From positions 1,488-65,487 of the forward strand of contig JAFDZY010000255.1 in NCBI GenBank assembly GCA_018266685.1: 64,000 nt of DNA, written 5' to 3'. Source of the DNA: Bacteroidota bacterium. GTDB taxonomy: Bacteria > Bacteroidota > Bacteroidia > Flavobacteriales_F > PHOS-HE28. Under the pieces are notes generated by a model. It had not been told where the DNA came from. It ran no database searches and saw nothing but the letters and a program-made list of their open reading frames with translations. Shown piece by piece: positions 14,623 to 55,288 of this stretch; the first letter of the stretch is position 1, and each line of letters begins with the position of its first letter. Made by a program: the position numbers and the translations under genes.

Positions 14623-14915
14623 CTACCTGTCTTTACCATTGGCTCTCGGCCAATCGGTATCGTAGACTGTCACGATCTCCATCTCCATACGGCTCACTTT
14701 GTACACTACGGACACATTCGGGTGGATTACTGCGCGGCGACTCCGGGATAGGTGGCCGAGACTTGGTATCCATGGGGGAACTGCTTGACCAAGGTCTCGA
14801 ATTCCTGCAGCAAGCTCAAGAAAGGCTCCACCCACGTCCACTCCTGGATCTTCGAAGAAACGTCTACCCGAAGCTTGGCTTCCCCAGACCAGTAAACGAC
14901 GCGATCACCGGCCAT
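14623..14915 (-). pseudogene. RelE/ParE-family toxin, frameshifted copy
   Basis: Homologous to the intact copy at 16061..16366 but split over two frames (ORFs 14727..15086 and 14623..14841). Alignment of ...ggcgactccgggata with ...ggcgacacccgggata shows a 1-bp loss near 14745-14750. Confidence 0.7.
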
Positions 14916-15129
14916 GCCCCGCCCAAAACTCCTTGCTGCCGATCCGATTTCCTTTGCGCAGGTCTTCGAGGCCCTTTTCCATGGCCCGGCGCTCATCCGA
15001 GGATATATCCCCCGCCCAATCACCATGCTGGGTGGCTTTCTTGATCCCCAGTAACGAATCCAATAGACCATGGTCCTCCATGCCATTGATCCATTCGATC
15101 AACTCCTTCCGGGTGGCTTGGGCGTTCAT
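14905..15129 (-). CDS. addiction-module antitoxin-like protein (partner of the frameshifted toxin)
   Basis: 74 aa, clearly similar by eye to the 16356..16580 product, and overlaps the toxin start. Confidence 0.65.
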   Translation of the reverse strand: MNAQATRKELIEWINGMEDHGLLDSLLGIKKATQHGDWAGDISSDERRAMEKGLEDLRKGNRIGSKEFWAGHGR

Positions 15130-15191
15130 GGCTGCTCTTGTTGAACAAAGTTCGCCGCAGTTATCGGGTCAAACACGAACAAAGAGCCCTG

Positions 15192-15224
15192 CGGTTATCG
15201 CTCGTGTGTCGCGAGTGATAACTG
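15192..15224. repeat. 33-bp palindromic repeat, copy 1
   Basis: cggttatcgctcgtgtgtcgcgagtgataactg. One of four copies, all 33 nt long. Confidence 0.85.
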
Positions 15225-15299
15225 CGCCCGCAAGAACTCCTCCTCGCCCTCCAAGTGTTTTATGCATTCGCCCATCTTCTTTATGCTCGCATCGTACAT
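15195..15299 (-). pseudogene. orphan 3' fragment of an XRE-family gene (34 codons plus stop)
   Basis: Own translation: MYDASIKKMGECIKHLEGEEEFLRAQLSLATHER*. It aligns without gaps, stop to stop, with the C-terminus of the 16936..17319 protein (LYEARIKELEEVVAELRKDKLFLQTQLAAAQKER*) at about 14/34 identities. Confidence 0.45.
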
Positions 15300-15417
15300 C
15301 TTGGCATATATAGCGCTGGATGTGGTATTGCTGCCCCCACTCCCAACACCCGCATGTGATCTGGAAAGAACAGTTTCCTGCCTACGTTGAGCAGGTCAGT
15401 CATTCCCCCCTCCCGGA

Positions 15418-15786
15418 CTACAACAACCTCACCTCGATCACTTCCCTCAACCGCTTGAAGTCATTGTCGGAGATGATCAGCGGCATGTTCAACGTGGCGG
15501 CCGTGGCTGCGACCAACGAATCCGCTAACTTCAACCGGTAGTTGCTGCGCAACCACACACAACGCTCCTTGATCGACGGGCTAATGTCCCAAATGGAGCA
15601 AAAGGCAAGCACCTGGCTGATCACTTCCTGTGCGTTGCGCTTCGTCGCACACATGGTCAAAAGCTCGATCTCCGTTGCGATGGAAATGTGGACTTCACGG
15701 CCCAGCAACCATTCCCTGGCTTCAGGATTTCCTTCCAGAAAGTGGATCAACACGCTCGTATCGGCCACGATGGCGCGATCATTCAT
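15418..15786 (-). CDS. PIN-domain toxin (VapC-like)
   Basis: MNDRAIVADTSVLIHFL... carries the PIN acidic residues and is 122 aa. Confidence 0.85.
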   Translation of the reverse strand: MNDRAIVADTSVLIHFLEGNPEAREWLLGREVHISIATEIELLTMCATKRNAQEVISQVLAFCSIWDISPSIKERCVWLRSNYRLKLADSLVAATAATLNMPLIISDNDFKRLREVIEVRLL

Positions 15787-15982
15787 CGCGCAGCTCCTTC
15801 AACAGGGGGAAGGCCCACTTGCCCATTGCCGGAAGGGCACCCCACAGTTCCTCGGCATGGAACACTTTGCGCATGGGAGCATCAGTCTTTCGCTTCCGTA
15901 CCGTGGCCACGCGCTTTGTAGCACGGCTGCGACGTGCCACCGGCTTCACCGCAGGGATGGCTTTGTTCTTTTTAGTGGCCAT
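15779..15982 (-). CDS. putative cognate antitoxin of the PIN toxin
   Basis: 67-aa basic protein overlapping the vapC-like start by 8 bp. The family was not recognised. Confidence 0.55.
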   Translation of the reverse strand: MATKKNKAIPAVKPVARRSRATKRVATVRKRKTDAPMRKVFHAEELWGALPAMGKWAFPLLKELRDE

Positions 15983-15999
15983 GGCACGAAGTTAAGGCG

Positions 16000-16032
16000 C
16001 AGTTATCGCTCGCGTGTCGCGAGTGATAACTG
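16000..16032. repeat. 33-bp palindromic repeat, copy 2
   Basis: cagttatcgctcgcgtgtcgcgagtgataactg. Confidence 0.85.
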
Positions 16033-52818: not shown

Positions 52819-52824
52819 TAGCAG

Positions 52825-52868
52825 GTGGACACGGTGGGCGAGGTCTTCACCTCGTCCACCGTGTCTAC
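52825..52868 (+). terminator. compound hairpin
   Basis: gtggacacggtgg (52825-52837) pairs with ccaccgtgtctac (52856-52868); the loop has its own cgaggt/acctcg stem. Confidence 0.6.
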
Positions 52869-52947
52869 TTGCATGAGCGGAGCCTACCCCGATACACCAA
52901 AAAAGCCCGATCTTTGTAACCTATACCTGCAAAATAATTCCGCACCC

Positions 52948-54087
52948 ATGGCCATAGAAAGCATCACCCCCCAACTCGAAAAGCTGGTTCCCGAAGCTGC
53001 GGACTTCCTCCCTTTGCTCGGTACCGACTACATCGAATTCTACGTGGGCAACGCCAAGCAGGCCGCCCACTTCTACAAGACGGCCTTCGGCTTCCAGAGC
53101 TTGGCGTACGCCGGCCTGGAGACGGGCGTGAAGGACCGTACCAGCTACGTGATCGAGCAGGACAAGATCCGCCTGGTGCTCACCACGCCGCTCACGCAGG
53201 ACCACCCGATCAACGACCACCTGCGCAAGCACGGCGACGGCGTGAAGGTGATCGCCCTGTGGGTGGACGACGCCACCAAGGCTTGGGAGGAGACCACCAA
53301 GCGCGGCGCCAAGAGCTACATGAAGCCCACGGTGGAAAAGGACGCCGACGGCGAGGTGGTGAAGAGCGGCATCCACATCTACGGTGACACGGTACACCTC
53401 TTCATTGAGCGCAAGAACTACAAGGGCACCTTCCTGCCGGGCTTCAAGCCGTGGAAGAGCACTTACAACCCCGGCCCCACCGGTCTGAAATACGTGGACC
53501 ACATGGTGGGCAACGTGGGCTGGAACGAGATGAACCCGTGGGTGAAGTTCTATGAGGAGGTGATGGGCTTCGCCAACGTGCTGGGCTTCGACGACAAGGA
53601 CATCAGCACCGAGTACAGCGCCTTGATGAGCAAGGTGATGAGCAACGGCAACGGCCGCATCAAGTTCCCCATCAACGAGCCGGCCGAGGGCAAGAAGAAG
53701 AGCCAGGTGGAGGAATACCTGGACTTCTACAACGGTCCGGGCGTGCAGCACATCGCCGTGGCCACGGACAACATCGTGAAGACCGTGCGCGACCTGATGA
53801 GCCGCGGTGTGGAGTTCCTCAAGGTGCCCAGCACTTACTACGAGGGCCTGCTGGAACGCGTGGGCCCCATCGAGGAAGACCTGGCTCCTTTGGCCGAGCT
53901 GGGCATCCTGGTGGACCGCGACGATGAGGGCTACCTGCTGCAGCTCTTCACCAAGCCGGTGGAGGACCGCCCCACGCTCTTCTTCGAGATCATCCAACGC
54001 AAGGGCGCCAAGAGCTTCGGCAAGGGCAACTTCAAGGCGCTGTTCGAGGCGATCGAACGGGAGCAGGAAAGCCGGGGGACGCTATAG
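52948..54087 (+). CDS. hppD: 4-hydroxyphenylpyruvate dioxygenase
   Basis: Two VOC-fold halves, with the HIA..T, Q.F and [20 protein letters not shown] signature C-terminus. ATG at 52948. Confidence 0.93.
54003..54087 (+). repeat. direct repeat, left copy (native 3' end of hppD)
   Basis: 85 bp, 79/85 identical to 55204..55288 by manual alignment. Confidence 0.9.
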
Positions 54088-54987
54088 GTGCTTAGACTTG
54101 CCGTCTGTGAAATGAGGTTTCCGGTAGACCAGACAGTCCAGCAACTCCTCAACAAGAGGCTCGAGGAGTTGGAGAAGCACTTCGATGCGGATGTGCTTTC
54201 ATACTTCGGACCAATCGCCGATGGGAATGAACAACTCTTCCTTCAGCTACTAGAAGACCTCTCTGCGGATCCCGCCAAGCGGAAGAAGCTCATGGTCGTT
54301 TTGACGACACCCGGTGGTAGTGCGATCGCCGTCGAACGCTATGTCAACATGATCCGGCATCACTATGATGAATTGGATCTTCTTGTTCCCGATTACGCGT
54401 ATAGTGCAGGCACTATCTTCTGTATGAGCGCGGACAACATCCATATGGATTACTACTCGGTGCTCGGACCCATCGACCCCCAAGTCCTGAACAAAGACGG
54501 CAAGTGGGTCGCGGCATTGGGATACTTGGATAAGGTCAATGAGCTGTTGGAGAAGGCTCGTGAGAAGAAGCTTAGCCAAGCTGAATTCCTTATTCTGAAG
54601 GACATTGACTTAGCGGAGTTGCGCGGATATGAGCAGGCCAAGGCCCACACCATCGACCTGCTCAAAAAGTGGTTGGTGAAGCACAAGTTCAAGAACTGGA
54701 CGACGCACAGAACCAATCCGGTACTTATTGGCCAAGCCGTCACCGAGGACCAAAAGCTGGCTCGTGCTGAAGAGATAGCTGCCGCGTTGAGTGACAACAC
54801 CAAGTGGAAGACACACGGCAGGCCGATCAATCTGGAGTCGCTGAAGGAGTTGCGCCTGGAAATCGAGGATTACTCGTCATCCCCATTTGGTCGTCGCGAA
54901 CTCGTAAGGGAGTACTCCTTGCTGATGTTCGACTATATCCGGCGAAACAGCTTCACCAGTTTCATTCACACTAGACACTTCATTTGA
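54088..54987 (+). CDS. Clp-fold serine protease of the SDH / S49-like family
   Basis: LMVVLTTPGGSAIAVERY....VPDYAYSAGTIFCMSADNIHM matches the ClpP/SppA-fold pattern. The track start is a GTG immediately after the hppD stop; an alternative ATG lies at 54112. The block has lower GC. Confidence 0.65.
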   Translation: MLRLAVCEMRFPVDQTVQQLLNKRLEELEKHFDADVLSYFGPIADGNEQLFLQLLEDLSADPAKRKKLMVVLTTPGGSAIAVERYVNMIRHHYDELDLLVPDYAYSAGTIFCMSADNIHMDYYSVLGPIDPQVLNKDGKWVAALGYLDKVNELLEKAREKKLSQAEFLILKDIDLAELRGYEQAKAHTIDLLKKWLVKHKFKNWTTHRTNPVLIGQAVTEDQKLARAEEIAAALSDNTKWKTHGRPINLESLKELRLEIEDYSSSPFGRRELVREYSLLMFDYIRRNSFTSFIHTRHFI

Positions 54988-54989
54988 GC

Positions 54990-55202
54990 ATGGAACAGGA
55001 CAAACTCTCCAGCCAACTTGGTCAGCTTCTCAAGGCAGAAGAGAATCGCCTTGGCCAAACAGAGGAACGCCTCATGCTCATCGAAGCACTTGAGGAGTTC
55101 AAGAGATTGGTGGAAGAGGGCATGGTGAAGCCACGCGGGAACACCCTGCTGCCGATGGACAAGCGTTTCGTTGAAGTGGTCTTGTTCAATTCTGCCATCT
55201 GA
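54990..55202 (+). CDS. small helical hypothetical protein (partner of the protease)
   Basis: 70-aa charged ORF that follows the protease gene almost directly (stop 54987; ATG 54990, or a TTG at 54984 that overlaps the stop). Its own stop abuts the right direct repeat. Confidence 0.5.
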
Positions 55203-55203
55203 T

Positions 55204-55288
55204 GGGCGCCAAGAGCTTCGGCAAGGGGAACTTCAAGGCGCTGTTCGAGGCGATCGAACGGGAGCAGGAAAGCAGGGGGACGTTGTGA
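55204..55288 (+). repeat. direct repeat, right copy (orphan hppD 3' end)
   Basis: Encodes [27 protein letters not shown], identical to the native end. All six nucleotide differences are synonymous or a stop-codon swap. Confidence 0.9.

Follow-up and report, generated by a model that had tools for sequence, protein, structure and literature searches.

Two-gene cassettes between duplicated host-gene ends in a Bacteroidota genome, and their possible insertion through host homologous recombination

In a 64-kb stretch of DNA from a Bacteroidota bacterium (contig JAFDZY010000255.1, positions 1,488 to 65,487), small two-gene cassettes, most of them toxin-antitoxin (TA) pairs, were found directly after the genes fcl and hppD and after the gene of an XRE-family regulator, with a further copy of the host gene end behind the cargo. 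The whole stretch is called the window here (W in comparisons), comparison loci carry L-numbers, and the term tag is used for a copy of a conserved host gene end that travels with a cassette. This architecture is real, and it was met again beyond the window, in other genomes and next to other genes. Some sites are empty, others hold arrays, tags can be mosaic, the fcl cassette is younger than the DNA around it, and neither a site shared by the loci nor a recombinase was in view. We lean towards the explanation that these are recombinase-free cassettes, inserted by homologous recombination of the host, to which the duplicated gene end offers a portable homology arm, and we consider it somewhat probable. 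That they form a distinct and widespread class, namely selfish TA or other operons with a built-in housekeeping-gene-end arm, like a natural knock-in construct, is a more tentative proposal.

Repeats in the window were searched by self-BLAST, and about 55 of its open reading frames (ORFs) were scanned for protein families (Pfam). The non-paralogous direct repeats were essentially those of the fcl, hppD and XRE loci and one 61-nt pair. Apart from these, the search returned a few short palindromes and two paralogous ABC-transporter genes that match each other. All three structures recur in independent NCBI, ENA and Logan assemblies, and thus they are not assembly artefacts. Three loci in 64 kb is a high density compared with about two candidates in 1.15 Mb of other Bacteroidota loci (Poisson P 2e-4). 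A preliminary description of the window, made from its sequence alone, had noted a lower GC content of the cargo and no integrase or transposase gene. Both points hold: the GC content is 52-53% in the cargo and 61% in the host genes, and none of the ORFs scanned matched an integrase or transposase family, several of them being without any match.

The fcl locus shows the architecture with a single cassette, and its features are the following.

29348..30286, plus strand: host gene fcl, a GDP-L-fucose synthase-type epimerase of 312 aa (Pfam Epimerase/GDP_Man_Dehyd; 80 orthologous loci)
30188..30288, plus strand: genic fcl tag, the last 33 codons with the stop codon and 2 nt (direct repeat)
About 10 nt before the ATG of the 71-aa ORF, plus strand: CCTAACTTTG (TAnnTTTG box), a Bacteroidetes-type promoter box
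30347..30562, plus strand: 71-aa antitoxin-like ORF, without family match, always paired with a PIN_2 gene in relatives
30559..30993, plus strand: PIN_2 toxin of 144 aa (PF10130, E 1e-26), overlapping the antitoxin stop by 4 nt
30999..31099, plus strand: displaced fcl tag, in frame and with its TGA stop kept, reading RLRALGWRHKIELRNGIKQVYDAFKKYDGAKV and then the stop

The two fcl copies are 101 nt long and 87% identical, and in either copy the homology ends 2 nt past the stop codon. The cargo begins 60 nt past the fcl stop and finishes 5 nt ahead of the second copy; the left end of the cassette reads GGATGCGTTGAC.... At the left end of the displaced tag (RLRALGW), all three amino-acid changes are to residues that are found in other Fcl orthologs. 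Expression by read-through from the host gene had been proposed for such cassettes but is not a rule; the fcl cassette has its own TAnnTTTG box.

At hppD, the displaced copy lies even closer to the cargo.

52948..54087, plus strand: host gene hppD, 4-hydroxyphenylpyruvate dioxygenase-type, 379 aa (Glyoxalase-family matches on the L178 gene)
54003..54090, plus strand: genic hppD tag, ending ...ACG CTA TAG (direct repeat)
54112..54987, plus strand: SDH-family Clp-fold serine protease of 291 aa, the first cargo gene (PF01972, E 5e-19; NF047768 below cut-off)
54990..55202, plus strand: partner ORF of about 70 aa, without family match, adjoining the protease in L178, L183 and L189
55204..55292, plus strand: displaced hppD tag, ending ...ACG TTG TGA (direct repeat)

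The two hppD copies, about 89 nt long, are 94% identical, with homology ending within 0-3 nt of the stop codon, and the cargo ends at 55202, 1 nt ahead of the displaced copy. The copies differ at only 2 of 78 early positions but at 4 of the 6 positions at the end (P 1e-4), and both still spell Leu-stop. This rewriting of Leu-stop (CTA TAG versus TTG TGA) points to two separately functional alleles. The cargo matched none of the PADLOC systems and is not a recognised TA or defence system. The module of SDH protease and partner ORF has more than 5000 homologs at 63-68% identity, in Bacteroidota, Planctomycetota, Ignavibacteria and Thermodesulfobacteriota, and this distribution suggests that it has spread widely by horizontal transfer.

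The XRE locus is an array, and all its features are on the minus strand. They are given here from the regulator gene onwards.

16936..17319, minus strand: XRE-family helix-turn-helix (HTH) regulator of 127 aa (HTH_26/HTH_3 matches; C-terminal tail variable among homologs)
16853..16906, minus strand: XRE-type tag 1 (ending in ELLRRQLSLATRER and the stop), with palindromic core, about 30 nt past the XRE stop
16696..16852, minus strand: 157-nt spacer between tags 1 and 2, a sequence in which nothing was identified, possibly the remnant of a lost cassette
16642..16695, minus strand: XRE-type tag 2, with a palindromic core of 33 nt that is perfect; same-species contigs break inside this tag
16061..16580, minus strand: cassette A, a 74-aa antitoxin-like ORF (16356-16580) and a ParE-like toxin (16061-16366)
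15999..16052, minus strand: XRE-type tag 3, with 38 nt identical to tag 2
15418..15982, minus strand: cassette B, a 67-aa antitoxin-like ORF (15779-15982) and a VapC-type PIN toxin (15418-15786)
15191..15299, minus strand: XRE-type tag 4, a diverged XRE 3' end of 34 codons and the stop (BLASTP)
14623..15129, minus strand: cassette A', which copies cassette A at 82-87% and has a frameshifted toxin; it is the oldest unit and is also present in the sister species

The repeat unit of this array is the 35-nt palindrome CAGTTATCACTCGCGACACGCGAGCGATAACTG, with 13-16-nt arms around a short spacer, which reads QLSLATRER-stop. It is present in four copies, one of which is extended to 34 codons. The extended copy aligns with the XRE C-terminus without gaps up to the stop (BLASTP, 38% aa identity, E 1e-6). 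The XRE tags are closer to the C-terminal tails of other XRE alleles (FLRAQL, FLRRQL) than to the resident tail. In the preliminary description, cargo was followed at three loci by a slightly diverged copy of the host 3' end. This is true of fcl and hppD, and the serial cassettes at XRE were also confirmed, but the XRE copy is far from slightly diverged. Furthermore, its statement that each XRE cassette is closed by a tag fails for cassette A', the last of the array, after which there is no tag. In the sister species L196, whose XRE is 85% identical, the XRE gene is followed by a degenerate long tag and an A-like antitoxin with a truncated toxin. Therefore tag 4 and A' are the old part of the window array, and A and B were added between that part and the XRE gene. 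The XRE palindrome had no match (0) in viral contigs.

The cargo was mostly classified as TA-type, in agreement with the preliminary description, which had called it TA-like or unknown; the unknown one is that of hppD. As in type II TA systems, the toxins matched PIN_2, PIN (VapC type) and, weakly, ParE_toxin, and the gene pairs overlap by 4-8 nt. The toxin of cassette B matched PF01850 (E 9e-18; NF047959 below cut-off), and the ParE_toxin match of cassette A (E 9e-4) is weak and below the gathering score.

Short-read contigs of the same species (L190, L191, L193, L195) stop shortly after XRE, and two of them (L190, L191) end inside tag 2. The XRE tag array is thus a systematic assembly breakpoint, and such arrays are probably under-represented in metagenome-assembled genomes (MAGs). 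Orphan gene ends can also be expected to mislead gene callers. Upstream of the array, a block with low GC content at third codon positions (GC3 0.47-0.58; window 17500-21065) contains three ORFs without family match (297, 332 and 363 aa) and small ORFs. It sits between the XRE gene and a peptidase-C39 ABC exporter/HlyD pair of the bacteriocin-export type, and both the block and its linkage to XRE are conserved in L196. In L201 (690-1620) and also in L202, at least 8 copies of tandem units of about 43-48 nt (…GAGGTCACATCACGGAGAACC-GAGGCACAGCTAACCAACTGT…) lie directly after an XRE homolog. The 61-nt direct repeat of the window (23392-23452 and 24885-24944, 80% identity) brackets an HlyD-family gene (23365-24738), with one copy in the 5' end of the gene and the other about 150 nt past its stop. 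This pair could be a one-gene example of the tag architecture, or a repetitive extragenic palindromic (REP)-like element.

To compare the fcl site among relatives, one genome per species was scanned, and 80 other Bacteroidota fcl loci were returned. In the two closest species (L006 and L007, with 93% and 91% Fcl identity), the next conserved gene comes directly after fcl, and the site is thus empty. A second copy of the species' own fcl end within 8 kb was present in none of the 80 other species (0/80), and fcl was rejected as a general insertion hotspot. Two occupied loci come from other lineages. L098 has a single PIN_2 cassette at fcl. L086, found by the PIN_2 toxin search, has an array with four tags, in the order fcl, tag, 71-aa ORF/PIN_2 pair, tag, DUF433/DUF5615-type pair, tag, HepT/MNT pair, tag. 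The DUF433/DUF5615-type and HepT/MNT pairs are on the opposite strand, so that two of the three cassettes are inverted. The four L086 tags are 84-101 nt long and 89-94% identical, with a fixed right edge (fcl stop and 2 nt) and a variable left edge.

The fcl genes of the three occupied and two empty lineages are 88-92% identical at the nucleotide level in all pairs. Therefore the occupied lineages do not form a separate clade, and occupied and empty ones are interleaved. The cassette is much less diverged than its flanks. Between W and L098, the third-codon-position divergence is 16.9% in fcl and 16.1% in gmd, but 3.7% in the TA cassette (Fisher P 8e-7). The values for W and L086 are 21.1% in fcl and 7.8% in the cassette (Fisher P 3e-5). 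The divergence of the cassette between lineages is thus 3- to 5-fold below that of the flanking genes. Sliding identity between W and L098 gave the same picture, with 0.96-1.00 in the cassette genes as against 0.7-0.97 in the flanks; the displaced tag is at 0.80 and the downstream sequence at about 0.7. Since the cassette is little diverged and its presence is patchy, it was exchanged among the lineages after their divergence, landing at the fcl end each time. The fcl tags of W and L086 cluster by genome and not by position, except for about 25 nt adjoining the cassette, which are common to both. Directly 3' of the displaced fcl tag in the window is a 692-aa ORF (31252-33330, GC3 0.61) without Pfam match. 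It is missing in L006 and L007, and L098 has only a diverged version, so the region downstream of fcl varies beyond the cassette.

The preliminary description had called for a search for further examples, and such examples were found with the PIN_2 toxins. An alignment of PIN_2 toxins was used as query in a metagenome scan, which returned 80 loci at 32-98% identity. Flanking repeats of at least 40 nt were counted in the 41 loci that have 800 nt on both sides of the TA pair, and mock cassettes placed elsewhere in the same loci (n=130) were the control. Direct repeats flanked the PIN_2 pair in 13 of the 41 loci and 11 of the 130 mocks (Fisher P 5e-4), while inverted repeats of this length flanked none of the 41 (0/41). 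The repeats are locus-specific: except for orthologous pairs, they are unrelated between loci. Those assigned to genes are listed below.

L113 and L116: last 135-150 nt of a peptidase M1 gene
L141: last 135-150 nt of a formate-tetrahydrofolate ligase gene
L157 and L158: a stretch of about 100 nt towards the 3' end of a DegT aminotransferase gene, stopping about 11 nt short of the stop
L119: 3' end of a convergent peptidase M20 gene
L096: 3' end of a convergent peptidase S9 gene
L143: 5' end of an FAD oxidase gene
L173: 5' end of a GSCFA gene

In L113 and L141, the repeat edge is at the stop codon. One further locus came from the fcl set (L043, Cyclobacteriaceae). It has a non-TA cargo of two uncharacterised genes and a 177-nt tag, which begins at the stop of a convergent gene. 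Cargo and host gene were described as co-oriented in the preliminary description; with the inverted cassettes of L086 and the convergent cargo of L096, L119 and L043, this cannot be a rule. The repeat-bounded units are 0.65-1.2 kb long and consist of the two cargo genes alone, flush with the tags (window, L086, L113, L116, L141, L143, L173). Overall, the tag is common but not universal for such cassettes, because the SDH-protease homologs of two genomes and a fourth TA pair in the window have no repeats.

The repeat arrays beside the PIN_2 cassettes of L103 and L123 differ in kind from gene-end tags and were excluded from the count. In L123, a 124-nt repeat (126-249 and 3737-3860, 89% identity) with nested palindromes flanks a 3.5-kb stretch that ends in the PIN_2 cassette. 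This repeat has the look of a structured element, perhaps of attC type, and not of a gene end. Beside the PIN_2 cassette of L103/L104 (about 684-3529), a gene 5' fragment (ATGCCCCGCCTCATCGTCCACGG…, MPRLIVHGF…) is present four times, at spacings of 0.5-2.2 kb. These may be an array on 5'-end tags, or tandem paralogs.

Neither the comparison of tags nor the inspection of junctions found a motif common to the tags of different loci, so the shared junction motif that the preliminary description had considered was not borne out. A single trans-acting recombinase, its other suggestion, is unlikely, since the tags at different loci share nothing. The string TGTGAGG at the ends of the fcl tags and the displaced hppD tag was discarded as a candidate: it is mostly Val/Leu and TGA, and it is absent from the genic hppD copy. 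When tested against shuffled sequences, the fcl and hppD tags folded no better than the shuffles (z +0.8 to -0.4), while the XRE tags did fold (z -2 to -3.5). The XRE and L089 tags contain a hairpin.

Judged by their sequences, the tags look like gene ends that were once functional. All 12 3'-end pairs that align well keep the frame and a stop codon, some of them with a switch between TAG and TGA or between TGA and TAA, and the repeat edge is 0-3 nt from the stop codon at fcl (five tags), hppD, L113, L141 and L043. The repeat pairs are 35-303 nt long and 73-97% identical, and no pair is identical (best 96.6%). The stop-codon switches were down-weighted as proof of two functional alleles, because genic stops themselves switch in L113/L116; of the end-rewrite evidence, only the clustered synonymous rewrite of hppD was retained. 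There is no general trend of mismatch enrichment at the cassette-proximal ends of the tags. In L119, the repeat is a mosaic, with 129 nt identical and then 174 nt at 83% (P 4e-8). Together with the clustering of the fcl tags by genome, this mosaic shows that homologous exchange acts on tags.

Based on these results, we propose the following mechanism. The elements would be small non-autonomous cassettes with their own promoter and two genes, usually a type II TA pair, and without an encoded recombinase. Through the homology of the tag to its gene in related genomes, host recombination could insert the cassette beside that gene. This might happen by a single crossover, if a circle of tag and cassette integrates, or by a double crossover, if a linear fragment recombines through two arms, the upstream gene on the left and the tag on the right. 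Both routes would give an intact host gene, the cassette and a displaced gene end, and repeated events at one gene would give N cassettes and N+1 tags. A cassette would be lost scarlessly if two tags recombined, and TA cargo would penalise such a loss. For the first tag at a new gene, an aberrant loop-out and homology-facilitated illegitimate recombination are candidates, the latter having been proposed for type VI secretion system (T6SS) arrays (PMC5361080). What we infer is that RecA-type recombination is at work, which intermediate it uses, how the DNA is transferred and that the TA pair has a stabilising role. The homology model explains the arrays, either orientation of the cargo, the empty sites and the young cassette in old flanks. 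The repeats would end at the stop codon because only gene-end tags are non-disruptive and because the homology between donor and recipient stops with the coding sequence. The preliminary description had likewise suggested a common mechanism, such as integration of circular cassettes. A common mechanism that is recombinase-free and based on homology tags fits the data, with either a circle or a linear fragment as the possible intermediate. In the window there is also a gene for the single-strand exonuclease RecJ (3651-5426), a housekeeping recombination gene that is not specific evidence.

Several points weigh against the homology-arm explanation. The most serious concerns the origin of tags. 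With about 20 host loci for one TA family, tag creation cannot be very rare; new tags must arise often, and this is covered only by a rare step that was not observed. Tags of 50-100 nt at 80-94% identity are poor substrates for RecA. The preliminary description had proposed to look for empty and occupied alleles and for circular intermediates, and the fcl site is indeed empty in the nearest species. No circular junction was found, and there was no within-species polymorphism: all contigs with identical Fcl, SDH protease or XRE share the same structure. The negative result for a recombinase covers 64 kb of the genome, and the perfect palindrome with 16-bp arms in the XRE tags would equally suit a site-specific enzyme or an operator. 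Differences between tag copies are spread over the codon positions as 33:25:57, or as 89:65:135 when the set is enlarged and takes in three pairs with imperfect alignment, and the displaced copies of L098 and L116 contain internal stops. Much of the divergence is therefore plain decay, which by itself does not prove a foreign allele. Moreover, the SDH-protease homologs at lipA and rodA (L183, L189) have no flanking repeat, and thus the architecture is not a property of this cargo family. No flanking duplicate was detectable at the fourth TA pair of the window (48550-49253) either. This TA-like pair, on the minus strand, consists of a DUF6364 antitoxin-like ORF (48984-49253) and a PIN_3 toxin (48550-48987), whose stop overlaps the start of an epimerase gene (47582-48553), a gene-boundary position like that of the other pairs.

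Other mechanisms could also place a cassette between gene-end repeats. The tags might be att sites for a tyrosine or serine recombinase, or for Xer, encoded elsewhere in the genome or on larger islands with the same sites, and the cassettes would then be mini-elements of the type of cis-mobilizable elements (CIMEs), pseudo-staphylococcal cassette chromosome (pseudo-SCC) elements or integrative mobile elements exploiting Xer (IMEX). Integrase-borne islands classically show imperfect 50-150-nt direct repeats at gene 3' ends, accretion in tandem and derivatives that lack the integrase, the XRE palindrome has the shape of a recombinase core site, and the right edge is identical in all four (4/4) fcl tags of L086. 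However, the tags at fcl, hppD, XRE and about 15 other genes have no common sequence or fold, so each locus would need its own recombinase, and none was found in the 64 kb. Two-gene units flush with their tags are unlikely to have arisen about 20 times by internal deletion of larger islands, and the mosaic and the concerted evolution of tags show homologous exchange. We therefore regard trans-acting site-specific recombination as unlikely. A displacement that happened once per locus, by homology-facilitated illegitimate recombination followed by vertical descent, would leave the tags as passive scars. Such recombination would be anchored in the conserved gene, with the illegitimate join within the 3' end of the recipient. 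It is the mechanism proposed for the orphan arrays at Rhs and T6SS effector-immunity loci (PMC5361080), it predicts the variable left edge and fixed right edge of the displaced ends, and the lack of within-species polymorphism agrees with it. Yet the join would have to fall 0-10 nt past the cargo stop in nearly every case. The displaced copy should also be native, while the left end of the displaced fcl tag (RLRALG) looks non-native, and the 3- to 5-fold lower synonymous-site divergence of the cassette, with its patchiness, argues for repeated transfer to the same site. Such one-off events are quite unlikely to account for the loci.

The repeats could finally have been made in situ, by widely staggered nicks or by a tandem duplication that trapped DNA, with copies of 50-300 nt of which the non-genic one decays. 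Many host loci with a repeat are natural if the insertion itself makes the repeat. The differences at all codon positions and the internal stops are compatible with such decay, and neutral decay also predicts what the sister pair L113/L116 shows, an identity of 97% between the genic but only 82% between the displaced copies. Against this origin, no repeat pair is identical, and the best reaches 96.6%. A repeat edge within 0-3 nt of the stop codon is not what a random staggered cut gives, the hppD Leu-stop is synonymously rewritten at 4 of 6 bases, the XRE tags match the tails of other alleles, and the cassette is younger than its flanks and patchy at the same site. To our knowledge, no bacterial mechanism produces target duplications of 50-300 nt. 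Duplication in situ is thus very unlikely.

If the homology-arm explanation is true, very small accessory operons could spread between diverged genomes without an enzyme of their own and with the host gene left intact. This would explain why TA pairs are frequent directly after housekeeping genes, and it would be a recombinase-free route to cassette arrays beside integrons. In MAGs, the signature to search for would be an orphan in-frame gene end with its stop codon. If the cassettes are in addition a distinct class, they could insert scarlessly beside the tagged gene in any genome that has this gene, stack into arrays, and gain new arms by a regular process.

Full-text literature searches found no description of TA cassettes with housekeeping gene ends, which is not proof of absence. 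In the literature searched, no named class matches exactly, as the preliminary description had supposed, but close relatives exist, namely the displacement arrays at Rhs and T6SS loci and the CIMEs. Transposons and insertion sequences are more distant: there is no transposase match, flanking inverted repeats are absent from the 41 PIN_2 loci, and the repeats are long and never identical. Integrons and clusters of attC sites lacking integron-integrases (CALINs) also have small cassettes between imperfect repeats, commonly with TA genes, and no recombinase inside the array. Their attC sites, however, are folded imperfect palindromes with RYYYAAC/GTTRRRY cores, which are recombined single-stranded by IntI. 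The fcl and hppD tags are unstructured coding sequence (z about 0) and were rejected as attC sites. So were the XRE tags, in which the palindrome is only 35 nt compared with 57-141 nt and GTTATCA does not fit GTTRRRY. No IntI or Phage_integrase match was found in the window, and a CALIN would lack the integrase anyway. The pdif modules and IMEX are similarly small, often TA-bearing and recombinase-less, and are moved by the host XerC/XerD; the XRE array, and only this array, also resembles them in its palindromic boundary sites. A pdif site has 28 bp, in the order XerC-spacer-XerD, and on plasmids such sites usually alternate in orientation, while the XRE tags are direct repeats that belong to a coding 3' end, and no site of this kind is present in the fcl and hppD tags. 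The XRE tags also do not appear to resemble the dif consensus. The cargo families had only rare and distant matches on PLSDB plasmids, and no vehicle was identified.

The pseudo-SCC elements sit at the 3' end of rlmH. Like them and like CIMEs, which are recombinase-less elements with tandem accretion at att sites (PMC5704250), the cassettes described here have direct repeats that include a conserved gene 3' end, have no recombinase and can be stacked. CIMEs and pseudo-SCC elements differ in having a cognate integrase or cassette chromosome recombinase (Ccr), a short defined core and an origin in larger integrative and conjugative elements, integrative and mobilizable elements or SCCs. The units here are 0.65-1.2 kb long with locus-specific tags of 35-300 nt, and no cognate recombinase or core was found in the 64 kb. 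Remnants of mobility genes or variable content, which would be expected between the att sites of an element derived from a larger one by deletion, are absent from these units of two cargo genes alone. The proposed insertion step itself has known counterparts. In Campbell-type integration, a single crossover of a circle that bears a gene fragment duplicates the fragment, and this is non-disruptive only with a gene end; such insertion-duplication is, however, a laboratory procedure. The minimal mobile elements of Neisseria are moved by host recombination through conserved neighbours, but they rely on a pair of different genes, one on each flank, and no duplication results. The literature searches turned up no natural cassette equipped with a gene-end arm of its own.

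The closest concept is the C-terminal displacement known from Rhs, contact-dependent inhibition (CDI) and T6SS loci, and the cassettes are a variant of homology-driven displacement arrays. C-terminal displacement and orphan arrays at Rhs were reportedly described by Jackson et al. in 2009. For the orphan arrays of T6SS effector-immunity genes, homologous and illegitimate recombination have been proposed (Kirchberger et al. 2017, PMC5361080). In these arrays as in ours, new modules enter beside a conserved gene through recombination anchored there, the old 3' end is pushed downstream and kept, serial units each carry a gene fragment, and there is no dedicated recombinase. A conserved gene body with displaced 3' ends was accordingly found at fcl (window, L098 and L086), at hppD and at XRE. 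The difference lies in what the displaced end encodes. At Rhs and T6SS loci, the 3' end is a variable toxin tip and the cargo an immunity gene, so that one protein is diversified. The displaced ends here encode the same housekeeping C-terminus instead of alternative toxin tips with immunity genes, and this conserved, equivalent end serves only as homology. The cargo here is a separate TA operon that has its own promoter and may point either way, and it is found at many unrelated host genes. If the explanation proposed here is true, the idea of C-terminal displacement would be widened from polymorphic toxins to metabolic genes.

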